Source: Bacteroidetes bacterium GWA2_31_9b
GTDB lineage: Bacteria > Bacteroidota > Bacteroidia > Bacteroidales > UBA12077
Direction: 5' to 3'
Length of the DNA: 33,586 bases
Assembly: GCA_001769005.1 (NCBI GenBank)
Contig: MENE01000037.1
Coordinates: 1 to 33,586 of the forward strand
Notes under the pieces: generated by a model
Databases searched by the model: none
What the model was told of the DNA's origin: nothing
The model's input: the letters and a program-made list of their open reading frames with translations, nothing else
Shown: piece by piece, positions 3,885 through 30,005 of the stretch
Layout: the number at the start of each line of letters is the position of its first letter
How positions within the stretch are numbered: position 1 is the stretch's first letter
Program-made: the position numbers and the translations under genes

Positions 3885-6284
3885 CTATTCGTAACGCAAT
3901 GTATCTGCCGGATTAGTATTCGATGCTTTAATTGCCTGAAAACTTGTGGTTAACAATGCTATTGCTATAGATAAAACAGCAGCCAGAACAAAAACCCACC
4001 AGCTTAATTCGGTTTTGTAAGCATAATTTTGTAACCATTTGTTAATCAAAAACCAAGATACAGGAATAGCAATAACAATTGCAACAATAACTAGTTTTAT
4101 AAAGTCTTTTGATAAAATATAAACTATCTCTGATGAGGTTGAACCCATTGCTTTTCGTATACCAATTTCTTTTGTACGTCTTTCTGTCATAAATGAAACT
4201 AGTCCGAATAAACCCAACGAAGCAATTATAATTGCAATTAGTGAAAAGTATTTAATCAAACTACCCATACGTTGTTCGGAATTGTACATTTGCTCATATT
4301 CATCATTTAAAAAGTGGTATTCAAATGGATATGAGGGCATCACAGAGCTCCAGGTATCTTTTAACTTATCAACTGTTTGCGCTACATTACCCGGTTTTAT
4401 CCGCATGATTATTAATCGTACGTAATCGTCAAAACCAACAGCAATTGCAAGAGGTTCTATTTCTGAACGCATAGAATAAAAGTGGAAATTTTTCATTACA
4501 CCAATAATTCTTCCTTTATTAATTCCCATAAATGAAAAACGCATGCCAATAGGATCGTCAACATTAATAATTTTTAGCATTTCCTCATTTATTAAAAATG
4601 CTCCTGTTGAGTCAGCAATACGGTCTGAAGGAAAATCTTTAGAAAAAGATCTTCCTTTAACAATAGGTATTTTTAATGTTTCAGTATAATCAAAATCAAC
4701 AATACTCATGCTTACAAGAATAGTAAGGTTTGGATCTTTACCATCCCAGTCAGCACCACCCGAGTTACTCCCAATATTACTGGGTAAATGCGATGATGCT
4801 GTTACATTTTCTATCAAAGGATTTGCTTTAAATGCATCTTTGATAACTGAGTAGGATTTATTAATATCGCCAAACATCTGAATATAAATAACATGTTCCT
4901 TATCGTATCCAAGCTTTTGAGCTTGCATAAATTTGAGCTGTTTATATATAAAAATGGTACTAATAATCAGAATTATGGATAAAAAAAACTGAAATATTAC
5001 CAAGAATTTTCTGAGATTTCCCTTTTTTGATGATTCGGTAAATCCACCCTTAAGAACTTTTACAGGATTAAATTTTGAAAGATATATTGCTGGATATATA
5101 CCGGCAACAATCCCGGTAAAAAAGGTAATTAGTATTAAGCCTAAAATAAATTCAGAACTCTTAAAAAACTCAAACGAAATTTGTTTGCCGGAAAGTAAGT
5201 TGAATTTTGATAAGAGTAATGCTGTTATGAGTAAAGCAATAATTGCTGCAATAACTGTAGTCAGAACCGATTCGCCAAAAAACTGAAGTATTACATTTCC
5301 TCTGCTTGCCCCAGAAGTTTTTCGCATTCCAATTTCTTTAGCTCTTCTCGATGATCTGGCTGTTGATAGATTCATAAAGTTGATACAGGCAATTAATAAT
5401 ATAAAAAGCCCGATTGTCATAAAAATATATACAATCTGAATTTGTCCGGCCGAATGCCCATAACCGAAATACTGATGCAAATGCATATCACTTAATGATG
5501 AAAGCATAAAATTTGTTTTATAGTCGCTTTCTTTATAGCTTTCATCGAATTCAATATGACTTTTAACAACATCGGTTAATTTTCGATTAACTGGAATTGG
5601 ATCAGTATTATATTTTAGCTTTACATAAGTAAAAATGGAATTATTTCCCCATTGTTCCTGATAAAAACCAATTGTTTTTGTAAAATCGAATGGTACAAAA
5701 AACCCAAAACGGATACTTGAGTTGGTAGGTATTTTTTTTAATACACCGGTAACTGTAAAATCAAATTGATTATCGATACGAATAATTTTTCCCAAAGGAT
5801 TTTCGGAACCAAAATATTTCTCGGACATTTCCTTTGTTAAAACCAGACTCAAAGGTTTTGTTAAGGCTGTATTTGGATCGCCCGTTTCAAGATCAAAATT
5901 AAAAACCGAAAAAATCGTAGAATCAACAGCAACTATTCCTGATTCAAAGAAAGATTTTTCATCATATTTCAACAGTAAATTTCCAGTATAAGCAAATCGA
6001 ATGGCATCTTCAATTTCAGGAATTTCCAGCTTCCAACCTTCGCCCGAAGGATAAGGTGTAACATTAACGTGATACGATTCACCATTGTAAAACTGATCTT
6101 GTTCAACGCGGTATATCTGATCAATTTGTGCATGGAATTTATCAAACGTTACCTCATCGTAAACCCACATAAAAATTAATAAAGCACAAGTTATTCCAAG
6201 TGCTAATCCGAAAATGTTAATAAAGGAAAAACCCTTATGCCTGGTAATATTTCGGAAGGCAATTTTAAGGTAATTCTGAATCAT
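3885..6284 (-). CDS. ABC transporter permease, double FtsX / MacB-like periplasmic-core family
   Basis: 799 aa. N-terminal TM (FSFINIFGLALGITCALLIFMWV), two FtsX-type TM clusters each preceded by a large soluble domain, and a C-terminal NPADTLRYE. It is a paralogue of 25358..27751. Confidence 0.85.
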   Translation of the reverse strand: MIQNYLKIAFRNITRHKGFSFINIFGLALGITCALLIFMWVYDEVTFDKFHAQIDQIYRVEQDQFYNGESYHVNVTPYPSGEGWKLEIPEIEDAIRFAYTGNLLLKYDEKSFFESGIVAVDSTIFSVFNFDLETGDPNTALTKPLSLVLTKEMSEKYFGSENPLGKIIRIDNQFDFTVTGVLKKIPTNSSIRFGFFVPFDFTKTIGFYQEQWGNNSIFTYVKLKYNTDPIPVNRKLTDVVKSHIEFDESYKESDYKTNFMLSSLSDMHLHQYFGYGHSAGQIQIVYIFMTIGLFILLIACINFMNLSTARSSRRAKEIGMRKTSGASRGNVILQFFGESVLTTVIAAIIALLITALLLSKFNLLSGKQISFEFFKSSEFILGLILITFFTGIVAGIYPAIYLSKFNPVKVLKGGFTESSKKGNLRKFLVIFQFFLSIILIISTIFIYKQLKFMQAQKLGYDKEHVIYIQMFGDINKSYSVIKDAFKANPLIENVTASSHLPSNIGSNSGGADWDGKDPNLTILVSMSIVDFDYTETLKIPIVKGRSFSKDFPSDRIADSTGAFLINEEMLKIINVDDPIGMRFSFMGINKGRIIGVMKNFHFYSMRSEIEPLAIAVGFDDYVRLIIMRIKPGNVAQTVDKLKDTWSSVMPSYPFEYHFLNDEYEQMYNSEQRMGSLIKYFSLIAIIIASLGLFGLVSFMTERRTKEIGIRKAMGSTSSEIVYILSKDFIKLVIVAIVIAIPVSWFLINKWLQNYAYKTELSWWVFVLAAVLSIAIALLTTSFQAIKASNTNPADTLRYE

Positions 6285-16751: not shown

Positions 16752-17888
16752 ATGAGAAAATTAGTATTGTTATTTGTTGCATCAACTATAATTATTTCGT
16801 GCCAATCGGAACGAAGTAAAAAAGAATCAGAAATAAGAAATGAACTGAAAAAAATTATTAACGAAGTTGGTTTACCCGGAATAAATCTGGCAATTTCAAT
16901 GCCCAATAATGAACTCTGGACAATATCCGAAGGGTATTCCGATAAAGAAAAACAATCGATAATGAAACCTGAAGATGTTATGTTTTCAGGCAGTACAGGC
17001 AAAACCTTTTGTGCTGCACTTATTTTGCAATTACAAGACGAAGGCAAATTAAATGTTGATGATTCACTTTCGAAATATTTTGGCAATGAAGAATGGTTCG
17101 GTAAAATTGCCAATTCACGTGATTTAACTTTACGAATGTTACTAAATCATACATCAGGGCTTGAACGGTATGAATTTGACGATTCGATATCCATAAAATT
17201 GAAAGAAAATCCAGATAAAATCTGGACAGGAGTGGAGCGATTATCGCATATATTTGGTAAGCCCGCATTACACGAAGCAGGTAACGGTTGGGCATATTCC
17301 GATACCAATTATATTCTTTTGGGTATGTTAATTGAGAAACTTATTGAAAATGAATATTATGCCGAACTTGAAAAGAGATTTTTTCAGCCACTTAAATTGG
17401 AGAATACTTTTCCCGGAAATAACCGAGAGATAAAAGGTTTAATTACTGGTTACTCTATTTATTCAAAAGAATTTGCAGTACCTGAAAAAGTATTACTTGA
17501 AAATGGGAAATTTGCATTTAATCCTCAAATGGAATTCACTGGTGGAGGAATAGCTTGTACAGCATCTGATTTAGCAAAATGGGGTAAGTTGTATTATGGA
17601 GGTAAGGTCTTTTCACAAAATGCATATAAGTTAATGATTACTCCTTCATTCCAAAAAACAAATTTACAGGATAATGCAAAATATGGAATGGCTTGTTTTG
17701 TATGGAACGATGATGGTAGAATTTCTTTTGGCCATACAGGTTTTTTTCCGGGTTATGTAACTATTGTTGAATATATTCCTGGAAATAATATCTGCATTGC
17801 TATGCAATGGAATACCGATAAAAAAAACCCAGAAAAGTCTTTACATATGTACCTTGAAAACATTAAGGAAATAGTAAAGAAACATTAA
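16752..17888 (+). CDS. Serine hydrolase, beta-lactamase family (probable lipoprotein)
   Basis: Lipobox IISC. S-x-x-K motif SGSTGKTF, plus LLNHTSGL and YSDTNY motifs typical of the family. Confidence 0.8.
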   Translation: MRKLVLLFVASTIIISCQSERSKKESEIRNELKKIINEVGLPGINLAISMPNNELWTISEGYSDKEKQSIMKPEDVMFSGSTGKTFCAALILQLQDEGKLNVDDSLSKYFGNEEWFGKIANSRDLTLRMLLNHTSGLERYEFDDSISIKLKENPDKIWTGVERLSHIFGKPALHEAGNGWAYSDTNYILLGMLIEKLIENEYYAELEKRFFQPLKLENTFPGNNREIKGLITGYSIYSKEFAVPEKVLLENGKFAFNPQMEFTGGGIACTASDLAKWGKLYYGGKVFSQNAYKLMITPSFQKTNLQDNAKYGMACFVWNDDGRISFGHTGFFPGYVTIVEYIPGNNICIAMQWNTDKKNPEKSLHMYLENIKEIVKKH

Positions 17889-20289: not shown

Positions 20290-20832
20290 ATGAAACTAAG
20301 TATATGGATCATTTTTTTTCTTGCAATGTTTTTAACAACATTAAAATCTTATAAAGTGTTATCTCAGAATCATATATGTGTACAAACAAATGGAAATATT
20401 AATGATGCTATTGATATTAACCTAAATTGGTTTAAGCAATTATCAGAAAATTATAATGAATCAACTTTTGTTGTATATTATGGTTTAGGAAGTCATTCCT
20501 ATCACTTTACAGCTTCAGACAATGATTTTGTGAAAGAAAATAGCGATTATTCAGATAATAATGATTATCAATTCGGTCAAGGTTCTGTTTTAATGGATAA
20601 TGGAAGAAAGCTTGATGTTAAATATTTATATAATAAAGAAAAATTTAAAGTTGAATTAGCTCGCTATTTAAAGAATGGAGAATTAGACACATCTTTTTTT
20701 AAAAACGGGAGAATAACAAAAACAGTTTATAAAAAAGACAAAAAGGGAAGTATGATCGTATTTAAATCAGATGAAAATTTGGTAATAGCCGGTTATACAG
20801 AATCAGACTCAACCTTTATTTATATTAAATAA
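20290..20832 (+). CDS. Hypothetical secreted protein
   Basis: 180 aa with an N-terminal signal peptide (IWIIFFLAMFLTTL). NGELDTSFFKNGRI resembles a single propeller-type repeat. Its 3' end is duplicated at 21200..21274. Confidence 0.55.
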   Translation: MKLSIWIIFFLAMFLTTLKSYKVLSQNHICVQTNGNINDAIDINLNWFKQLSENYNESTFVVYYGLGSHSYHFTASDNDFVKENSDYSDNNDYQFGQGSVLMDNGRKLDVKYLYNKEKFKVELARYLKNGELDTSFFKNGRITKTVYKKDKKGSMIVFKSDENLVIAGYTESDSTFIYIK

Positions 20833-20871
20833 CCAATATAAAAACAATCTATTTAACCAAAATCTAAATTT

Positions 20872-21045
20872 ATGTACGATCAAAGAAGCCACATTATTTG
20901 TGGCCCAGCTGCAGTTATAAATAAAGAACTAGCAATGTTAGCTTGTACTGAATATGCATGTCATTGTCAATGTAATCAAGGGAGCGGAAGTGGTGCTGGT
21001 GTTGAAGGTGGGCATGTTGTAATTTTCAAGCCTTCGTTGTTATAG
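20872..21045 (+). CDS. Putative RiPP precursor peptide A1 (57 aa), absent from the ORF track
   Basis: Hand translation: MYDQRSHIICGPAAVINKELAMLACTEYACHCQCNQGSGSGAGVEGGHVVIFKPSLL. It shares the leader-like motif, the CxCQC core, the Gly-rich linker and the hydrophobic tail with A2 and A3. Confidence 0.7.
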   Translation: MYDQRSHIICGPAAVINKELAMLACTEYACHCQCNQGSGSGAGVEGGHVVIFKPSLL

Positions 21046-21199
21046 GTAAAGATTTTTGATTCATTACTTTTCAATCGAAATAGCTATAATTAATTCTAAA
21101 AATAGATTAAAGAGAGAATTGTTAACCGGTTGAAAAGTTTATCATCATAAAAAATAAAACCAATTTGGTTTATTAAGAAACTCGAAAGTAAGTTTGATT

Positions 21200-21274
21200 A
21201 TGTTTAAATCAGATGAAAATTTGATTCTAGCCGGCTATGCAGAATCATGCTTCACTTTTGTGTACATAAAGTAG
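21200..21274 (+). pseudogene. Duplicated 3' fragment of the 20290..20832 gene
   Basis: It encodes MFKSDENLILAGYAESCFTFVYIK*, compared with VFKSDENLVIAGYTESDSTFIYIK* at the end of 20290..20832. Like the parent, it is followed about 40 nt later by a precursor gene. Confidence 0.6.
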
Positions 21275-21318
21275 CTATTGGGTTGCTTTATATTAATTAT
21301 TAATCTTAATTTAAAATC

Positions 21319-21489
21319 ATGAAAGAACAAAAAAAACATTTTATTTGCGGTCCAACAGCGGTTGTAAATAAAGAATTAGCAATGATGGCAGCATCAAGTT
21401 GTGCTTGTGCTTGCCAGTGTGGTTCACAAGTTGGAACTGGTAATGGTGGTGGATCAGGAGGTTCATTATTAGATTTACTTTCTTTTTAA
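21319..21489 (+). CDS. Putative RiPP precursor peptide A2 (56 aa), absent from the ORF track
   Basis: Hand translation: MKEQKKHFICGPTAVVNKELAMMAASSCACACQCGSQVGTGNGGGSGGSLLDLLSF. Confidence 0.75.
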   Translation: MKEQKKHFICGPTAVVNKELAMMAASSCACACQCGSQVGTGNGGGSGGSLLDLLSF

Positions 21490-21522: not shown

Positions 21523-21711
21523 ATGAAATCAGTAAAACATGTAATTAGTGGACCATCTTCAGTGGTTCAAAAAGAACTGGCTACTTTAGCAGCAGCTGGT
21601 TGTGGATGTCAATGTGGTTGCGGAAGTGCATCAGGTAGTGGTGGTGGAACTGGCGGCGGTGGCGGCGGCGGTGGCGTTGGCGATTTAATAAGCTTGCTTT
21701 CTTTATTATAA
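21523..21711 (+). CDS. Putative RiPP precursor peptide A3 (62 aa)
   Basis: ORF track: MKSVKHVISGPSSVVQKELATLAAAGCGCQCGCGSASGSGGGTGGGGGGGGVGDLISLLSLL. It starts 33 nt after A2 and has the same architecture as A1 and A2. Confidence 0.8.
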   Translation: MKSVKHVISGPSSVVQKELATLAAAGCGCQCGCGSASGSGGGTGGGGGGGGVGDLISLLSLL

Positions 21712-21725
21712 GAAAACAATAAATG

Positions 21726-21764
21726 GAGATGTATGCATTAATTTATTTAATGCATACAGATCTC
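21726..21764 (+). terminator. Stem-loop after the precursor genes (possible leaky terminator or attenuator)
   Basis: 12-bp perfect stem tgtatgcattaa / ttaatgcataca with a 5-nt loop, extendable with one bulge (gagat...agatctc). The downstream T-tract is weak. Confidence 0.45.
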
Positions 21765-21842: not shown

Positions 21843-22001
21843 AAAACAAAAAAGAATACACATAATCATATTATTTGTGGATTATCAGCAGTTGTCAAAA
21901 AAGCCAGTTTAGATACTATAGGATGCACTTTTCCATGCAGTTGTGGAATTGAATTAGGCGCTGAATATTCATATGGGGGTGGAGTAGCAATTACAAATTA
22001 A
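21843..22001 (+). pseudogene. Decayed fourth precursor-like copy (no start codon)
   Basis: The in-frame translation after the stop at 21840 is KTKKNTHNHIICGLSAVVKKASLDTIGCTFPCSCGIELGAEYSYGGGVAITN*. It retains H.IICG..AV and a C.....C.C segment. The position aligned to the A3 ATG reads aaaaaacaaaaaaGAA, and the KELA motif, Gly linker and Leu-rich tail are lost. Confidence 0.45.
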
Positions 22002-22075: not shown

Positions 22076-22151
22076 ACTAAATAGAAATAATAAAAATTTG
22101 GATTTCATAATTTTTGATTATCATTTAAAAATACTTACGTTAAACTTAACC

Positions 22152-23471
22152 ATGGATACACTAAAAAATTTTGAGAAAAGTTTTCTTATTGAAGAAATTA
22201 ACGAAAATAAATATATAATATATAATGTTGATAGACATATACCGATTATTGTTGATAAAACAGGGAAAAAGTTTTTTGATATTATTTTAAATAATAGAGA
22301 TTTAGAATCATGTAAAAAGAGCCTTTTGAAAAATGAATTCGATGATTTTGTACTATTTTTAAAAGAAATTGGCAATTTACAAGTATTGGATACATCACCT
22401 TCAGAAACGATTAAACCAAAAAACAACCCGCCAAAAACAGCTTATTTACACCTTACTTATAAATGTAATTTAAATTGTAATTATTGTTACAATAAAGATG
22501 TACGAAATAAATTTGTTGATCTCCCATTTGAAAAATGGAAAAATATAATTGACAAATTATTACCTACAACAAATTATTTTATTTTAACAGGTGGAGAACC
22601 ATTTCTATTTAAAGATCTAAAAAACATAATAAACTATATTCATTCCTATAATTCTGAATATCAAGTTGAGATATTATCAAACGGAATGATTAACTTTTCG
22701 GAATATTCAGATTCAAATGAAGTTTTTAACAATATTCATAGAATTACATTTAGTTGCGATAATTTTAAATCAAATAATCAGGTAAGAAAAGGATTTGAAA
22801 TAGAAGAATTTAAAAAGAATCTGGAATGGATTATTAAAAACGGATATGCAGAAAAAGTTGGTTTAAGTTCAGTTTATTATAAAGAAAATCTTGAGGGAAC
22901 TATTGAAGTTCAACAATATTGCAAAAGTCACTGCATGCAACATAGAAGAGTTCTAGTTATTCCTAATAATCGTGATGAAATCAATATTATGCCATCTTTA
23001 GAATCATTTCTAGAATCTCTAGGTTCTAACGAAGCAATTTATGACTTAACTACTTTTTTTAAGCGATTAAATTGTGGAGCTGGGGTTGGACTTATTAGTA
23101 TCGACCCTGAAGGAAATTGTTACCCTTGCCAGAATTTACATTATGATAAATTTAATTGTGGTAATATATTAAATAAATCATACAAAGAAATTCTTGATTC
23201 AGAAGTAATTAATCTTTTTAGATCGGATTTAATTGTTGAAAATATTTCTACCTGTAACGAATGTAAACTTAGATATATTTGTGGAGGAGGTTGCAGAGCT
23301 GCAAGCTACAGATTGGAAGGAAAAATTGATGCTTTTCCAGAAGTTATGTGTTCATATTACAAAAGCTTAGCTAAACACAAACTTATAAATGGTGTCTTTT
23401 TTACTCCCAGTGAATTATTAAATCGTAAAGATTCTATAAATAAATTAATAGAAAAAGAATTTATTATTTAA
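22152..23471 (+). CDS. Radical SAM / SPASM-domain peptide maturase with an RRE-like N-terminal domain
   Basis: CNLNCNYC (CxxxCxxC) at 22464-22487. GGEPFL SAM-binding motif. C-terminal cysteine pattern C326-x12-G-x4-C344 ... C386-x2-C389-x5-C395-x3-C399 ... C418 (ORF-track numbering). About 90 aa lie before the rSAM core. The ATG at 22152 is preferred over the track's TTG at 22098. Confidence 0.85.
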   Translation: MDTLKNFEKSFLIEEINENKYIIYNVDRHIPIIVDKTGKKFFDIILNNRDLESCKKSLLKNEFDDFVLFLKEIGNLQVLDTSPSETIKPKNNPPKTAYLHLTYKCNLNCNYCYNKDVRNKFVDLPFEKWKNIIDKLLPTTNYFILTGGEPFLFKDLKNIINYIHSYNSEYQVEILSNGMINFSEYSDSNEVFNNIHRITFSCDNFKSNNQVRKGFEIEEFKKNLEWIIKNGYAEKVGLSSVYYKENLEGTIEVQQYCKSHCMQHRRVLVIPNNRDEINIMPSLESFLESLGSNEAIYDLTTFFKRLNCGAGVGLISIDPEGNCYPCQNLHYDKFNCGNILNKSYKEILDSEVINLFRSDLIVENISTCNECKLRYICGGGCRAASYRLEGKIDAFPEVMCSYYKSLAKHKLINGVFFTPSELLNRKDSINKLIEKEFII

Positions 23472-23520: not shown

Positions 23521-25302
23521 ATGAACTTTAGTTTTAAAAATTCTTCATACAACATTGGCAAAGATAAATTTAACTGCTTGAAGCAGTATTTAATTAAGCC
23601 TAAAAAATATGCTATATGGGGAGGTGTTGCAATGATATTTAATATCCTTTTAATGCTGCCAACACCTCTTATTACAATGTATCTGATAGATCAGATTTTA
23701 CCTCAGAAGGATTTTCCGATGTTAAGTTTGGTTAGTGGATTGCTGGTAATATTTATCTTATTTAAATTTATTAGTTCATACTTTCAGAATTTATATTTTG
23801 TTAAGTTTAATGAGCTCGTAATATTTCATATTCAAATTGATTTAAACGAAAAAATACAATCTTTTACTGCCAGATATAGACAAAAACTTCAAACAGGTTA
23901 TTTAATGTCAAGAATTTCAAATGATCCCAATCGACTACATGGATTATTTGCTACTATTTTATTAACTGCTGTAAGCGATATTTTAACTTTTATTGTAGGA
24001 TTGATTATTATTTTCTTTATTCATTGGAAATTAGCTTTAGCGTCTCTTTTTATTTTGCCTTTTTTTATTTATGCAATTAATTATTTTAGTAAAAAAATCA
24101 GAGATACTGCAGAAGTAACTTATGAAGAAAGTGCACAAGTTTACAAAAAAATGCAAGAATCAATATCTTTAATTGATACATTCTTAATGTTTAATGCTCA
24201 AAAGTACGATGCAATAAAACTTGTTCAAAGAATGAGAAAATCGGTAGTTAGTTATATTCACTTATCTGTTTTGTCGAGTCTTTCAATGAATATAGCCGCT
24301 CTTATAAGTGGTATTGGACCTGTAGTTGTAATATGGTATGGAATGTATGAGATTATGAATGGGAATTTAACTTTAGGAGAATTAATTGCATTTAATGCTT
24401 TTATTGGATATCTCTTTGGTCCTGCAAACAGATTAATGAATGCAAATTCTAGTATTCAACAGTCACTCGCAGCATGGGATAGAATATATGAAATACTCAA
24501 TGAAAAGAAAAATGTACTTAAAAAATCTAAAAAAAATGTAAGAAATAAGATTCTAGGCCATGTTTCTTTCCAGAATGTAGCTTTTTCGTACGATGATCAA
24601 CCAGTATTAAAAAATATTAATTTAGAAATTGCTCCAAAAAGTATATTGGGAATTGTTGGTGAAAGTGGCTGCGGAAAGAGTACTCTGGTTAGCCTAATAC
24701 CTGTTTTAAATGAAAAAAATGAAGGTGAAATATTTATTGATGATTTACAAGTAGGTGATTATAACGTAAATACCTTAAGAGATCAAATTGCTTATGTAAA
24801 TCAGGAACCATTACTCTTCAATAATACAATACTAAATAATATTAAACTTGGTAATAAAAATGCGAGTCGTGATGAAATTATTCATGCTGCACATTTAGCC
24901 AAAATTAGTGATTTTATAGAATCTTTACCTGATGGATATGATTCAATAGTTGATGAAAGAGGATTAAATATGTCTGTAGGACAAAAACAACGAATTGCTA
25001 TTGCAAGGGCAATACTTAAGAAACCATCAATTTTAATTTTGGATGAATTCACATCAAACCTAGATTCAGAGTCGGAGTATGATTTGTTCGAAACACTTAA
25101 AGATTTCATGAAAGAACGAACTACAATTATTGTTGCTCACAGATTATCAACACTTAAATATGCAAATAAAATTGTTGTTCTTGATAAAGGGTGTATTGTA
25201 GAAGAAGGTAGCCATCAAGATCTTATGAAATTGGAAGGTTCATACAGCAACCTTTTTAATAAACAACACGCTAATGGCGAAATAAAAGTCCTTGTAAATT
25301 AA
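23521..25302 (+). CDS. ABC exporter, fused TMD-NBD half-transporter (no C39 peptidase domain)
   Basis: 593 aa. Six predicted TM segments begin around aa 30. Walker A GESGCGKST, signature MSVGQKQRIAIARA, Walker B ILILDEFTS, H-loop VAHRLST. Confidence 0.9.
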   Translation: MNFSFKNSSYNIGKDKFNCLKQYLIKPKKYAIWGGVAMIFNILLMLPTPLITMYLIDQILPQKDFPMLSLVSGLLVIFILFKFISSYFQNLYFVKFNELVIFHIQIDLNEKIQSFTARYRQKLQTGYLMSRISNDPNRLHGLFATILLTAVSDILTFIVGLIIIFFIHWKLALASLFILPFFIYAINYFSKKIRDTAEVTYEESAQVYKKMQESISLIDTFLMFNAQKYDAIKLVQRMRKSVVSYIHLSVLSSLSMNIAALISGIGPVVVIWYGMYEIMNGNLTLGELIAFNAFIGYLFGPANRLMNANSSIQQSLAAWDRIYEILNEKKNVLKKSKKNVRNKILGHVSFQNVAFSYDDQPVLKNINLEIAPKSILGIVGESGCGKSTLVSLIPVLNEKNEGEIFIDDLQVGDYNVNTLRDQIAYVNQEPLLFNNTILNNIKLGNKNASRDEIIHAAHLAKISDFIESLPDGYDSIVDERGLNMSVGQKQRIAIARAILKKPSILILDEFTSNLDSESEYDLFETLKDFMKERTTIIVAHRLSTLKYANKIVVLDKGCIVEEGSHQDLMKLEGSYSNLFNKQHANGEIKVLVN

Positions 25303-25357: not shown

Positions 25358-27751
25358 ATGAAATTCTCTTTGAAATTTTTATTAAGAAGATTATTTAGAA
25401 ATAAACTAACATCATTAATTAATATTTTTGGTTTAACAATTGGTATTGTTTGTTCATTTTTTATTTTAATATACATATCATATGAATTAAGCTTTGATAA
25501 GTTTCATTCAAATTATAAGCATATTTATAGAATAACAGAAGAAAGAACACTAACAGAGCAACCAAGAACTTTAGCAGTTACTTGCCCTCCAATTGCAGGA
25601 ATAATATCAAACGAGTTTCCTGAAATTAAAACTGTTCGCATACTGCCATATGAGGCCAATATATTTTTAGAAAATGAAATAAATTTTAAAGAAAACAAAT
25701 TCTATTTTACTGAAAATTCAATTTTTAATATTTTTGATTTCCACTTTATTGAAGGAAATAGTAAAGAAGCTCTTTCCAACCCTAATTCAATAGTTGTGTC
25801 AGAAAGTATAGCAAAAAAATATTTTGGCAATGAAAAAGCAATTGGTAGAATAATAAAACTCAATAATAAGGTTGATTTCGTTGTTACAGGAGTTGTTAAA
25901 ATTTTTTCAGGTAATTCGCATATTAAACTGGAAGTTTTAGCATCCTTAAATACCTTCTTTAACGATAAAAAACTTATGGAGTCGTGGTGGAAAACAGATT
26001 TTTATACTTATGTTTTGATCCCAGAAGCCAGGGATAATCAAAATTTCAAAGAAAGCATCCCCAACATTATCAACAATTATATGCCTGATGCAAAAGGACA
26101 GCGAATATTTACTCTTCAGCCATTGAGGAAAATACACCTGTATTCAAATTTGGAAAATGAATTGGAGAAAAACAGCGATATAAAGTATATCTATATATTT
26201 GTTTTTATTGCCTTACTTATTATTGTTATAGTATGTTTTAATTTCATGAATTTATCCACAGCAACTTTTATGAAAGCATCAAAAGAAGTTGGTTTAAGAA
26301 AGATTTTTGGAGCAAAAAAAAGAAATTTGTCACTTTTATATTTTGGAGAATCTATATTAATCTCTTTTTTCTCTTTACTAATAGCAATAATTATTGTTGA
26401 AACAACAATTCATTTTTTTAATTCATATTTTCCTGGTATATATGAATTTTACTTTCTAAATAAATTAAAACTCTATTCGTTTTTTTTCTTTATCACTTTT
26501 TTAATAGGAATATTTGCTGGAAGTTACCCTGCAATTTATTTGCCATCTCTAAAACCCGTAGATGCACTAAAAAAATTAAATAGAATTGGAAAAAGTAATA
26601 TTATAACCAGGAATGTTCTTATTGTTTGCCAATTTGTAATTGCCTGTGTAATGATTTCTTCAACATTTATTATTTATAAACAGTCACAATATATAAAAAA
26701 GCTGGATTTAGGTTTTGATAAGCAAAACCTATTAGTTCTTAATATCCCAAAGGAATTAAATTCAAAATATGAGCTTTATAAAGATTTACTAAAAGGAAAC
26801 AATAAAGTTATTGATGTATGTATTTCAGGCGGGGTTCCAGGTGTGCCGTTAACATCAGAATTTCCATATCAATTAGATAATGTTAACTATAAAGGTAGTT
26901 TGCCTAACATATTAACATTTATGATCGATTATGATTTTATTCAGACCTATGGTCTTCAAATAATTAAAGGTCGTGGATACGAAAAAAATAGTGAATTGGA
27001 CAAAGATAAATCATTTATATTAAATCAAAAGGCTGTAAATACTTTTGGTTGGGATGATCCTATTGGTAAATCGTTTACAATTCATCAATTTAATGGGAAA
27101 GAAATGGAGACAAAAAAAGGAACTGTTATTGGAGTAGTTAAGGATTTTAATTTTAAGTCTCTTAATACCTCAATTGAACCTCTTGTTTTAGAGATAGCAC
27201 CATCTGATATGTTTTATAACTCACTATCAATAAAGTATAAAAATGGAGCAGATCAGGAAGTTTTAAGTATTTCCAAAAAACAATTGAAAGAAATGGGAAT
27301 AGACGAACCAATTGAATATTATTTTCTAAGCGATAAGTTACAGTCAGATATGAAGAAACAAGAAAATCTAAAAAGCTTGATGTATTTGTTTACAATCTTA
27401 ATTGTAATATTAGCTTGCCTCGGATTATTTGGTTTAGTATCTTTTAGTCTTAATCAAAGATCTAAAGAAATAGGTATAAGGAAAGTTCATGGTAGTAATA
27501 CCTTTAATATTGTTTTTCTATTTTATAAACAATACTTGAAATTAATAATCTATTCAAACATAATTGCTATTCCTTTTACCTTTTTTATAATAAATAAATG
27601 GATGCAATATTTTGCTTATAAAACAACAGTTAATTGGACAGTATTTATAGTTTCTTTTATAATGCTCTTTATATTGACATTTATAACTGTCACTGTTATT
27701 ACCATTCGAAATGCTAGAATAAACCCAGCAATTACTTTAAAATACGAATAA
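25358..27751 (+). CDS. ABC transporter permease, double FtsX / MacB-like family
   Basis: 797 aa. It has the same architecture and the same termini (FRNK..SLINIFGLTIG ... NPAITLKYE) as 3885..6284. No MacB-type ATPase gene lies adjacent. Confidence 0.85.
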   Translation: MKFSLKFLLRRLFRNKLTSLINIFGLTIGIVCSFFILIYISYELSFDKFHSNYKHIYRITEERTLTEQPRTLAVTCPPIAGIISNEFPEIKTVRILPYEANIFLENEINFKENKFYFTENSIFNIFDFHFIEGNSKEALSNPNSIVVSESIAKKYFGNEKAIGRIIKLNNKVDFVVTGVVKIFSGNSHIKLEVLASLNTFFNDKKLMESWWKTDFYTYVLIPEARDNQNFKESIPNIINNYMPDAKGQRIFTLQPLRKIHLYSNLENELEKNSDIKYIYIFVFIALLIIVIVCFNFMNLSTATFMKASKEVGLRKIFGAKKRNLSLLYFGESILISFFSLLIAIIIVETTIHFFNSYFPGIYEFYFLNKLKLYSFFFFITFLIGIFAGSYPAIYLPSLKPVDALKKLNRIGKSNIITRNVLIVCQFVIACVMISSTFIIYKQSQYIKKLDLGFDKQNLLVLNIPKELNSKYELYKDLLKGNNKVIDVCISGGVPGVPLTSEFPYQLDNVNYKGSLPNILTFMIDYDFIQTYGLQIIKGRGYEKNSELDKDKSFILNQKAVNTFGWDDPIGKSFTIHQFNGKEMETKKGTVIGVVKDFNFKSLNTSIEPLVLEIAPSDMFYNSLSIKYKNGADQEVLSISKKQLKEMGIDEPIEYYFLSDKLQSDMKKQENLKSLMYLFTILIVILACLGLFGLVSFSLNQRSKEIGIRKVHGSNTFNIVFLFYKQYLKLIIYSNIIAIPFTFFIINKWMQYFAYKTTVNWTVFIVSFIMLFILTFITVTVITIRNARINPAITLKYE

Positions 27752-27770: not shown

Positions 27771-29723
27771 ATGCAAAACTTAAAAAGACTAAAACCATAT
27801 AAATCTGAAAGACCTTTAAGAACAATTAATAAAATAAGAAATATTCTTGGTGAACATGATATTTTTACAATTGAAAGCCATATAATAGATGATGCCGATT
27901 TTCATTCCTGTCATGTAACTTTTGACAATAGCACTTTAGCTTTACTTGGAATAGCAACCAATGGAAAAGGTTTGAGTAGAGAATATTCTTTAGCAAGCGG
28001 ATATGCAGAATTCCTCGAAAGAATCCAAAATAATGCAAAAATTCATTTGCAGAATTATCAGGCTACCAAACGCTATTTGGAAAACGAAAATATGAATAAT
28101 GCTTTTCATAGAAAATTAAAACAAGAAGATTTGGTTCAGGATTTTAGATTCGCTCCTGACGAAAAATTTTTAAACATAGAAAAAGCGGTAAATGAGCAAC
28201 CAGATATTTATCAAAAAATTTTAAACTTGAATGATAATAAAGAAATCATTCAATTTATTGAAGAAGAACTATGTACCAATGAGATTGAAACTGTTCCTTT
28301 TTATGAGGTAAATAGTAATGAAATTAAAGAATTACCAATTCGATTAATTCAGAATGTTTGTGGAACAAATGGGATGTGTTCTGGTAACAACAAGATTGAA
28401 GCAATTTTACAAGGTATATCTGAAATTTTTGAACGATATGCAATAAGAGAAATATATTTAAAAGAGCTTTCACTTCCAACAATCCCACTTGAAGTATTTA
28501 TGGGAAATGAAATTTATGAGAGAATAAAAAAATTAGAATTAGAGAAAAGTTATACTTTCATTATCAAAGATTGTTCTTTAGGAATAGGTTTGCCTGTTTT
28601 AGGTGCACTTATTATTGATCATTCAAATAGCACATATACACTACATTTAGGTGCTGACCCAAGCCCAATAACTGCACTTGAAAGATGTTTTACTGAAGTT
28701 TATCAAGGGGGAAAAAATGCACGATTTAAGCCTGTTCATTACAATACTAAAGATATTTTCAGCTTTTTAGGAGCTAATAATCAAAAATCCCGAGAATGGA
28801 ATAAGTTAAATCAAATGTATAAAACCATTAAACAAGGTACGGGGTATTGGCCTGATTCAATATTTCTAAACAAAGAATCATATTCTTTTAATGGATTTGA
28901 AAACCCGGTATCTTATAGTAATGAAAAAGATATGAATTATTTTCTAAATATTATTGAAAGAAACAATTACAAACTTTTTATTAGAGATCATTCATTTTTG
29001 GGTTTTGACTCTTTTTACATTTATATTCCTGAATTAAGCCATTTATATAATATTGCAGATAATAATGCCTGCAAAATTGATTATAAACTAAAGCAGAAGT
29101 TTACTATTCTTGCTAACCTAAATAAAGCAAATGAAAATGATATTAAACAGGTTGTTGAACTAATTGAAGAAGATTACAATCATCCAAGATTCAGTGAAAA
29201 AAATATTAGACAGTACTTTTTGGCAAATCTAAATTTTGAATTTGTTGACATGTCACCTGAACTTTTCTTAGTGATGTTAAATTACAGAATTCAAAATTTT
29301 GATAAAGCATTTTATTTTTTAAATCAACACCTGATTAATTGTAAATCTGAAAATAATATTAATTATGCTTATTTATATGCTATATCAGAATATTTAAAAT
29401 TAAAAATTGAGAAAAACTCTAACGAAGATATTTTTAATAGATTGAGAATCCAATTTACTGAAAATATGGCTAATGATGTAATAAATGATATGGATAAAAA
29501 TGAAGAAATATTTAAATATCATAGACTTCCTTCATGTTTCGATTGCGATAATTGTCCAGTTTCTAATGAATGTAAATTCTTTGATCTTTTAAAGTGTTAT
29601 AAACCAATAAAAACAGCCTATAAGCTAAATGTTATTGATCAGAATGACTTGTCGAAATTATTTTATAACACGAATGATATTAAAACAAATAATTTATTCA
29701 AAGCAGAGTTTTCATCTAATTAA
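27771..29723 (+). CDS. YcaO-domain protein, stand-alone, with an extended C-terminal region
   Basis: 650 aa. YcaO signatures: NGKGLSREYSLASGYAEFLERIQN, GTNGMCSGNNKIEAILQGISEIFERYA, LHLGADPSPITALERCFTEVYQ. The C-terminal ~250 aa is helical-repeat-like and carries a Cys cluster. It starts 19 nt after the permease stop. Confidence 0.8.
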   Translation: MQNLKRLKPYKSERPLRTINKIRNILGEHDIFTIESHIIDDADFHSCHVTFDNSTLALLGIATNGKGLSREYSLASGYAEFLERIQNNAKIHLQNYQATKRYLENENMNNAFHRKLKQEDLVQDFRFAPDEKFLNIEKAVNEQPDIYQKILNLNDNKEIIQFIEEELCTNEIETVPFYEVNSNEIKELPIRLIQNVCGTNGMCSGNNKIEAILQGISEIFERYAIREIYLKELSLPTIPLEVFMGNEIYERIKKLELEKSYTFIIKDCSLGIGLPVLGALIIDHSNSTYTLHLGADPSPITALERCFTEVYQGGKNARFKPVHYNTKDIFSFLGANNQKSREWNKLNQMYKTIKQGTGYWPDSIFLNKESYSFNGFENPVSYSNEKDMNYFLNIIERNNYKLFIRDHSFLGFDSFYIYIPELSHLYNIADNNACKIDYKLKQKFTILANLNKANENDIKQVVELIEEDYNHPRFSEKNIRQYFLANLNFEFVDMSPELFLVMLNYRIQNFDKAFYFLNQHLINCKSENNINYAYLYAISEYLKLKIEKNSNEDIFNRLRIQFTENMANDVINDMDKNEEIFKYHRLPSCFDCDNCPVSNECKFFDLLKCYKPIKTAYKLNVIDQNDLSKLFYNTNDIKTNNLFKAEFSSN

Positions 29724-29794: not shown

Positions 29795-29888
29795 CTTAAT
29801 AATTGGGATGGGTTAAGTAGTTTAAAAATAAAGTTTTCGAGCTGAGAATCGTTTCTCAAATTAGCTCTCTCAAAGCTATGCAACTTGT

Positions 29889-30005
29889 GTTGATTATGTT
29901 ACTTGAAATGATATCTGTATAACCATGCAGTGGAATACCGATAAAAAGAACCCAGATAAATCATTTCACAAATATCTTGACAATATTAAACTATTTGTAA
30001 AATAG
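29889..30005 (+). pseudogene. 3' remnant of a serine-hydrolase gene paralogous to 16752..17888
   Basis: It translates to VDYVT*NDICITMQWNTDKKNPDKSFHKYLDNIKLFVK*, compared with GYVTIVEYIPGNNICIAMQWNTDKKNPEKSLHMYLENIKEIVKKH. By hand alignment, 24 of 32 residues and 73 of 96 nt are identical. It has an internal stop, a deletion, and no upstream coding body. Confidence 0.6.

Follow-up and report, generated by a model that had tools for sequence, protein, structure and literature searches.

What does a YcaO enzyme do when the genes of the usual YcaO partners are absent from its surroundings? The question is raised by ycaO, a gene near the right end of a stretch of 33,586 nucleotides (the window) from Bacteroidetes bacterium GWA2_31_9b, contig MENE01000037.1. 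A preliminary description had presented its product as a stand-alone YcaO that carries a cluster of cysteines. We find that ycaO is the last gene of a radical S-adenosylmethionine (radical SAM)/SPASM operon for a ribosomally synthesized peptide with post-translational modifications (RiPP), together with three precursor genes and exporters. The reading that we hold to be probable is that the protein is a RiPP-tailoring, partner-independent YcaO with the architecture of the Escherichia coli enzyme, a member of a subfamily with a loop of four cysteines (the Cys4 loop) that most likely holds a [4Fe-4S] cluster as reported for ItfB of Bacteroides thetaiotaomicron, and that it acts in the pathway proposed below. 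The window YcaO thereby belongs to a known, under-studied kind. The enzyme type was reported in 2022, and a partner-less YcaO with a possible iron-sulfur (Fe-S) site is no news to specialists.

Active site and architecture of the window YcaO

The gene and the first two of its domains are as follows.

27771..29723, + strand: ycaO gene, 650 aa, E. coli-YcaO/ItfB-like architecture, last gene of the operon (open reading frame, Pfam, NCBIfam, AlphaFold2, Foldseek, hhalign)
27960..29039, + strand: YcaO ATP/Mg2+-binding domain, aa 64-423 (Pfam PF02624, hhalign residue mapping, conservation)
29058..29498, + strand: TPR-like helical domain, aa 430-576, homologous to the C-terminal domain of E. coli YcaO (hhalign, AlphaFold2 helices, conservation)

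The Pfam YcaO family (PF02624) matches aa 64-423 with an E-value of 3.8e-43 and 148.5 bits, against a gathering cutoff of 25.7. In the hhalign alignment with E. coli YcaO (EcYcaO), S76, E80, E83, R84 and E218 of the window protein pair with S71, E75, E78, R79 and E199, while E221, R222, R305 and E309 pair with E202, R203, R286 and E290. All of these EcYcaO residues except R79 are reported to be its ATP/Mg2+ ligands (Dunbar et al. 2014). Across 110 homologues the window residues are invariant, apart from R84, which is kept in at least 90%; by this alignment the active site of the window protein is intact. Two cysteines of the catalytic domain also stand in family-specific columns: C268 is kept in 89% and C306, which directly adjoins the ATP-binding R305, in 80% of the family, many members having Thr or Ser in place of C306, and the EcYcaO counterparts are Gly and Thr, respectively.

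The translation ends ...NNLFKAEFSSN, and a motif scan reveals no P-x-P-x-P at any position; the C-terminal 40 aa of 96 relatives are likewise free of it. When all sizeable open reading frames of the window were run against Pfam and NCBIfam, no ThiF/E1-like, TfuA or nitroreductase-type dehydrogenase gene came up. The preliminary description was right on these counts: the ATP/Mg signatures, the helical C-terminus, the missing Pro-rich end and the missing partner genes were all recovered by Pfam, NCBIfam, hhalign, AlphaFold2 and the motif scan. A canonical thiazole/oxazole-modified microcin cyclodehydratase was rejected on the lack of both PxPxP and a partner. The model for azoline-forming YcaOs of the SagD type (TIGR03604) gives 42.7 bits for the window protein against a cutoff of 219, and that for TfuA-associated thioamide YcaOs (TIGR03266) gives 40.7 against 365.

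The protein has its best structural counterpart in E. coli. An AlphaFold2 prediction built on 110 homologues (pLDDT 92.5, pTM 0.93) places helices from about residue 432 to 636, and its top full-length Foldseek match is E. coli YcaO (4q84-86) over the whole chain, with a TMq of 0.67 and a TMt of 0.75; azoline-forming and methanogen YcaOs match with the catalytic domain alone, at a TMq of about 0.4. By hhalign, residues 7-576 align with EcYcaO 5-546 (E 9e-42), E. coli YcaO (4Q84) is the best solved relative, and the best NCBIfam model is likewise that of the E. coli type (NF040716), at aa 44-582, with 153.9 bits against an equivalog cutoff of 700. An N-terminal lobe, a YcaO domain and a TPR-like C-terminal domain of about 150 aa is, in the predicted model and in the alignments, the architecture of E. 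coli YcaO. The preliminary description had also considered that the protein might fall in a partner-dependent clade. NCBIfam, Foldseek and hhalign place it in the partner-independent, E. coli-YcaO-like clade, so that no E1 or TfuA partner is to be expected just beyond the window.

Comparison with characterized YcaOs sharpens this placement. EcYcaO (4Q84-4Q86) shares with the window protein the full-length fold, the domain order, the TPR-like C-terminal domain and the ATP/Mg ligands, lacks PxPxP and needs no E1 or TfuA partner. Identity between the two is about 20-25%, and EcYcaO differs in having no Cys4 loop, in being highly acidic with an isoelectric point (pI) of 4.4 as against 5.7, in acting on a folded ribosomal protein and in being encoded outside any biosynthetic gene cluster. 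Cyclodehydratases of the SagD/McbD/LynD/TruD type share the YcaO domain for ATP-dependent amide activation, but they need a fused or separate partner of the E1-like/RiPP recognition element (RRE) kind and a PxPxP C-terminus, neither of which the window protein has. TfuA-associated YcaOs (McrA-Gly thioamidation; thioamitides) also share the domain, and in them an external nucleophile attacks backbone amides; they differ as single-domain proteins of about 380-400 aa that usually come with TfuA and have neither a TPR-like domain nor a Cys4 loop.

Partner-less YcaOs of the E. coli type had been described beforehand as functionally poorly defined, a view that is now outdated. In 2026 the thioamidation of Met82 in ribosomal protein uL16 was assigned to EcYcaO, which needs no TfuA for it; the enzyme's TPR domain mediates dimerization and perhaps substrate binding, and the non-acidic members of its network group are found in RiPP clusters (PMC13063428). 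ItfB makes a backbone amidine from NH4Cl/ammonium (PMC11002830; also PMC10352776). In the window protein, aa 424-576 form the most variable region of the family, in which no column reaches 90% conservation. Such variability is compatible with substrate-specific recognition and is no proof of it; the proposal that the C-terminal domain serves in substrate recognition stands to that extent, and for recognizing a substrate or partner and for dimerization this variable TPR-like domain is the best candidate.

The four-cysteine loop

Beyond the TPR-like domain, residues 577-636, comprising the cysteine loop and the last two helices, stand where EcYcaO has its final 40 residues, which contain no cysteine. 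The feature in question is a single short loop.

29535..29573, + strand: C589-x2-C592-x2-C595-x5-C601 loop, putative [4Fe-4S] or other metal site (motif, conservation, AlphaFold2)

The C-terminal cysteines lie at residues 589, 592, 595, 601 and 609 (nt 29535-29597). Among 203 relatives, EcYcaO left out, C589, C592, C595 and C601 are each kept in 91-94%, and in an alignment of 204 sequences, EcYcaO included, all four occur together in about 90% at an overall identity of only 23-41%. They are the sole columns of at least 90% conservation in the last 230 residues. The loop is modeled with a pLDDT of 92-94 and a one-turn helix at C592-C595. At a Cys content of 2%, four cysteines so spaced are no chance event, and judged by its strong conservation the Cys4 loop is a real site. 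The non-conservation that had been named beforehand as a point against the cluster did not occur. Of the cluster first described, the four cysteines stand and C609 does not: it lies outside the site and is Ile, Leu or Val in relatives, and a role as fifth ligand was rejected on that ground.

Which metal would such a loop bind? The preliminary description had left the choice between zinc and an Fe-S center, and both the spacing of the cysteines and the literature on ItfB favor Fe-S, most likely [4Fe-4S]. Three cysteines within seven residues as C-x2-C-x2-C, together with C-x2-C-x5-C, are what one typically finds in cubane clusters (ferredoxins, Wbl proteins, EndoIII/MutY), and Zn sites usually consist of two separated CxxC pairs. 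The family is moreover concentrated in anaerobes. That the loop is instead a structural zinc knuckle that steadies the two final helices and has neither a redox nor an Fe-S role is nevertheless conceivable for a short, confidently modeled loop with four cysteines and a one-turn helix, the more so as the loop is also kept at loci of some likely aerobes (Polaribacter, Gemmatimonadaceae, Acidobacteria) and as its loss in about 10% of members with the fold kept suggests a stabilizing role. The typical cubane spacing, the anaerobic bias of the family and the Fe-S domain reported for ItfB stand against zinc, and we regard a zinc knuckle as unlikely.

ItfB was characterized by Clark and Seyedsayamdost in 2022, and a review calls it a YcaO-like protein "fused to an [Fe-S]-recognition domain" (PMC11002830). 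Encoded along with it are the radical SAM enzyme ItfD, an ABC exporter of the C39 type and a TonB-dependent transporter (PMC11002830), and the protein is UniProt A0A173ZJC6, WP_004319383.1 (id in the supplements of PMC10352776). Like the window YcaO, ItfB does without E1 or TfuA partners, and the itf cluster resembles the window in being a Bacteroidota RiPP cluster that encodes a precursor, exporters and a maturase of the radical SAM type. According to the abstract of the JACS paper of 2022, the YcaO reportedly contains an iron-sulfur cluster. The likeness extends to Bacteroidota relatives of the window protein, whose neighbors are itf-like: radical SAM enzymes, TonB-like outer-membrane proteins and ABC transporters of the size of peptidase-containing ABC transporters (PCAT-sized). 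Differences are also clear, since the window exporter has no C39 peptidase domain and the window no TonB-like outer-membrane protein, and the window precursors are unrelated to ItfA, being Cys/Gly-rich and devoid of the W-x-I-T-F motif. That the Fe-S site of ItfB would be a Cys4 loop of the window type is a well-motivated analogy. WP_004319383.1 surfaced neither in three cluster look-ups nor in the second homologue search, which started from a Bacteroides member.

Cys4 cysteines are missing, in part or entirely, from about 10% of the family, and several such members (L009, L028, L029, L034, L042) still adjoin radical SAM genes; the loss tracks neither a missing radical SAM neighbor nor the loss of C268 and C306. 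As these losses reach a tenth of the family, the cysteines are not indispensable to the family chemistry, and the metal site is probably a structural, redox-sensing or docking module rather than a catalytic center. The role in sulfur delivery that had been proposed for the cysteines finds no evidence here, given these losses beside radical SAM genes. Sacrificial or auxiliary Fe-S clusters do donate sulfur in BioB and RimO, and a thioamide synthase in which a Cys4-bound cluster supplies or relays sulfide instead of TfuA/ThiS would agree with the absence of TfuA from the window and with EcYcaO, the closest solved structure, being a TfuA-independent thioamidase whose sulfur donor is unknown. Yet EcYcaO thioamidates without such cysteines, ItfB, reported with an Fe-S domain, makes an amidine and not a thioamide, and about a tenth of the family does without the loop, which leaves a sulfide-relaying thioamide synthase improbable. 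A bolder proposal is that the cluster is catalytic, whether it supplies or relays sulfide or provides an electron or partner interface to the SPASM enzyme, and that the pair installs a backbone modification new to this clade on a metallothionein-like, CxCxCxC/Gly-rich peptide. We give this proposal little credence; if true, it would define a new RiPP class, with precursors in fewer than 10 of 1.8 billion representative proteins.

The operon, its peptides and the proposed chemistry

The window YcaO does not stand alone, and the following features precede its gene.

20872..21045, + strand: precursor A1, 57 aa (leader HxIxGPxxVxxKELA, core CxCxC, Gly/Ser-rich stretch, hydrophobic tail)
21319..21489, + strand: precursor A2, 56 aa, ending ...LLDLLSF
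21523..21711, + strand: precursor A3, 62 aa
21730..21758, + strand: terminator-like hairpin with a 12-bp stem, directly after A3 and before the enzyme genes
21843..22001, + strand: fourth, degenerate precursor-like frame, ..HNHIICGLSAVVKKASLDTIGCTFPCSCGIELGAEYSYGGGVAITN* (repeat family D2, translation)
22098..23471, + strand: radical SAM/SPASM peptide maturase, 457 aa, with an N-terminal extension of about 110 aa (Pfam Radical_SAM, SPASM)
23521..25302, + strand: ABC exporter with fused transmembrane and nucleotide-binding domains and no C39 peptidase domain (Pfam, NCBIfam)
25358..27751, + strand: MacB/FtsX-type permease, 797 aa, similar to DarB, a subunit of the darobactin exporter (Pfam MacB_PCD, FtsX; NCBIfam)

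ycaO starts 20 nt past the permease gene, and the gaps among the radical SAM, ABC, FtsX and YcaO genes measure 20-56 nt. Of the claim that the protein is stand-alone, the absence of canonical partners stands; the operon partner is a radical SAM/SPASM maturase, encoded upstream of that 20-nt gap. The best NCBIfam models for the maturase are peptide maturases of the StsB/CbpB/WgkB/DynA type, all under cutoff, and the permease matches NF038008 with an E-value of 1.9e-48, also under cutoff. The hairpin at 21730-21758 is possibly an attenuator that sets the ratio of precursor to enzyme.

The three precursors are paralogous: all have the leader HxIxGPxxVxxKELA, the motif CxCxC(xC), a stretch rich in Gly and Ser, and a hydrophobic tail; A1 matches sactipeptide precursor models weakly. 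The fourth frame (HIICGLSAVVKK...CTFPCSCG...) has no ATG, GTG or TTG start and is either a decaying copy or the user of a non-canonical start. Within the array, a tandem duplication of about 445 nt (20743-20942 vs 21185-21389) copied the 3' end of the open reading frame 20290-20832 together with the first precursor and left the gene remnant MIMFKSDENLILAGYAESCFTFVYIK before A2, which shows the way the precursor array expanded.

Outside the window the peptides are rare. A word-indexed search returned the window's own peptides only, and metagenome contigs scanned with a profile yielded no confirmed match. A full HMMER scan of 1.84 billion representatives added four further relatives, two of which (P0136, P0137) have an extra N-terminal double-glycine (GG) leader of Bacteroidetes type before the GPSxxV...CxCxC module; the module that we call leader in the window may accordingly be part of the mature or recognized region. 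In the seven aligned precursor relatives Cys-x-Cys-x-Cys is the sole invariant core motif. A hand-made DNA pattern retrieved one metagenome contig of 1.7 kb (L089, 131-583) with two precursors and an orthologous radical SAM gene, too short to show a YcaO. By these searches the precursors form a nearly orphan family with hardly any counterparts in public data.

We propose the following pathway. By gene order, ycaO is co-transcribed with the three Cys/Gly-rich precursor genes, the radical SAM/SPASM maturase and the two export components. The radical SAM enzyme would crosslink the cysteines of CxCxC(xC) through sactipeptide-like thioethers, the YcaO would spend ATP on the O-phosphorylation of a backbone amide in these peptides once a nucleophile has attacked, and the product would leave through the ABC and MacB-like pumps. 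As for the nucleophile, a small external one is slightly favored, either ammonia, giving an amidine as with ItfB, or sulfide, giving a thioamide as with EcYcaO. This preference follows the two characterized enzymes of the architecture and the Ser-Phe end of A2, which resembles the Thr-Phe site at the end of ItfA.

The core itself invites another reading, in which the protein is a partner-less azoline synthetase that cyclodehydrates Cys (and Ser/Thr) of a CxCxCxC-G-S-x-x-G-[ST]-G core to thiazolines and oxazolines, yielding a linear azoline peptide that the radical SAM enzyme modifies further. The cores are rich in Cys, Ser and Thr flanked by Gly and Ala, and in this they resemble microcin B17-type substrates (McbA); the invariance of Cys-x-Cys-x-Cys speaks for the same reading, and partner-independent azoline formation exists in bottromycin biosynthesis. 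The window protein, however, has no PxPxP C-terminus, and neither an E1/RRE partner nor a dehydrogenase accompanies it. The match to the SagD-type model is weak, both characterized enzymes of the architecture take external nucleophiles, and the cysteines are obvious substrates of the SPASM radical SAM enzyme too. Azoline formation is thus a possible outcome, though a less probable one than tailoring with an external nucleophile.

Several points weigh against the probable reading, that of a RiPP-tailoring YcaO with a [4Fe-4S] Cys4 loop. For the proteins with the loop examined here, the putative Fe-S assignment comes from the motif, its conservation and the literature on ItfB, and the role of the loop was judged from the pattern of its loss. 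ItfB, in which the same loop may occur, was compared by its published description, and the review wording "[Fe-S]-recognition domain" is silent on where the cluster binds. The chemistry is not readable from sequence, and the Cys/Ser/Thr-Gly-rich core does resemble an azoline substrate. L089 is the sole orthologous contig found for the precursor family and is short; it does not establish that the YcaO is conserved in orthologous clusters.

The family, its settings and the island

How common is such an enzyme? A first search returned 455 full-length homologues, the GTDB species representatives hold at least 553, and the second search returned 1,189 at E <= 1e-20. The family thus exceeds 1,000 proteins, most of them in Bacteroidota or Bacillota and the rest in a few further phyla, which have the full E. 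coli YcaO architecture and are misannotated as "S12 methylthiotransferase accessory factor".

Neighbors were counted in the 8 kb around 76 species-level loci, the count of radical SAM genes being a lower bound. At least 33 of the 76 loci have a radical SAM gene. Within Bacteroidota, 18 of 35 loci have one, 18 of 35 have a TonB-like outer-membrane beta-barrel and 30 of 35 have at least one of radical SAM, outer-membrane protein and ABC genes; Bacteroidota members also adjoin large PCAT-sized ABC transporters. A radical SAM/SPASM maturase as neighbor is a typical setting of the family. Pfam annotation of single loci displays the range: a YcaO between non-ribosomal peptide synthetase modules, carbamoyltransferase and B12-radical SAM genes (L002, 264-18820); a precursor, radical SAM, YcaO, outer-membrane protein and ABC set (L085); a radical SAM gene with glycosyltransferases (L087); and a radical SAM/SPASM gene with a 40-aa peptide (L091). 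A Marinifilaceae locus (L003, 2766-15585) holds four YcaO paralogues with LanB/LanC-like genes, radical SAM genes and a C39-peptidase ABC gene. L061, from a Clostridia metagenome-assembled genome, combines a Cys4 YcaO with the best BLAST match of the window radical SAM enzyme and a CACLCALGGSGSG precursor ending CACLCALGGSGSGAAAAVK, an ending that marks the same core type as in the window precursors. The closest YcaO homologues (P0001, P0003, P0006; about 40% identity) lie in clusters of different types, and their loci were rejected as orthologous gene clusters on that ground.

Minimal clusters were also seen. In L092 (610-7214) and in L018 and L021 (Prevotella), a GG-leader precursor accompanies a Cys4 YcaO, a TonB-like outer-membrane beta-barrel and a PCAT-sized ABC protein of about 720-730 aa, and a hidden Markov model detected no radical SAM gene in the examined sequence of these loci. 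The YcaO may be the sole tailoring enzyme in these Bacteroides/Prevotella clusters. At 16 Bacillota loci (Clostridia, Negativicutes, relatives) neither a radical SAM nor an ABC gene lies within 8 kb. Loci of this kind are L036-L041, L045, L047, L049, L052, L055, L056, L059, L060, L068, L069 and L073; most have the Cys4 loop, often in the variant CWNC, and a few have lost or altered it. By analogy with EcYcaO, their YcaOs may be protein-modifying housekeeping enzymes with a metal site. A tblastn search of plasmids found EcYcaO-type genes only.

Could the window YcaO be such a housekeeping enzyme, modifying a protein as EcYcaO modifies uL16 and merely adjoining RiPP genes? It has the same architecture as EcYcaO, and the 16 Bacillota relatives show that members of the family do occur away from radical SAM and ABC genes. 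Its gene, though, starts 20 nt from the preceding operon gene and lies inside the repeat-bounded island described next, its pI of 5.7 contrasts with 4.4 in the uL16-binding enzymes, its score on the EcYcaO equivalog model is 154 bits against the cutoff of 700, and its closest relatives sit in biosynthetic gene clusters. We consider a housekeeping role very improbable, and a function of the uL16 type was rejected on pI, operon position and model score.

The operon is enclosed by two repeats.

17754..17878, + strand: left copy of a 125-nt direct repeat, at the 3' end of a beta-lactamase-family gene (16752-17888) (repeat search D1)
29877..30001, + strand: right copy of this repeat, left over from the 3' end of that gene and located 154 nt past the ycaO stop (repeat search, open reading frame fragment)

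The copies are 77% identical and 12.1 kb apart, and the block between them comprises a two-component system, ORF180, the precursors and the radical SAM, ABC, FtsX and YcaO genes. Its GC content is slightly lower (23-28% against 28-33%), and no integrase was seen. The direct repeat copies at this distance suggest that the 12.1-kb block is an inserted island. Elsewhere in the window, outside the RiPP operon, a second MacB/FtsX-type permease of about 800 aa (3885-6284, - strand) is a paralogue of that at 25358-27751 (+ strand). The window, with a GC content of about 28%, also encodes CheW and a methyl-accepting chemotaxis protein with a zinc-binding CZB domain, uncommon for a member of Bacteroidota.

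What, then, does the locus offer? Among the more than 1,000 YcaOs of the Fe-S type, studies cover only one, and the residual interest lies in what the cluster does and in the almost unique precursors. The 9-kb operon, which combines three natural substrates with exporters and a single partner of the radical SAM type, is a compact test system for the function of the cluster and for the nucleophile of this clade, and its Cys/Gly-rich peptides may yield a new natural product.

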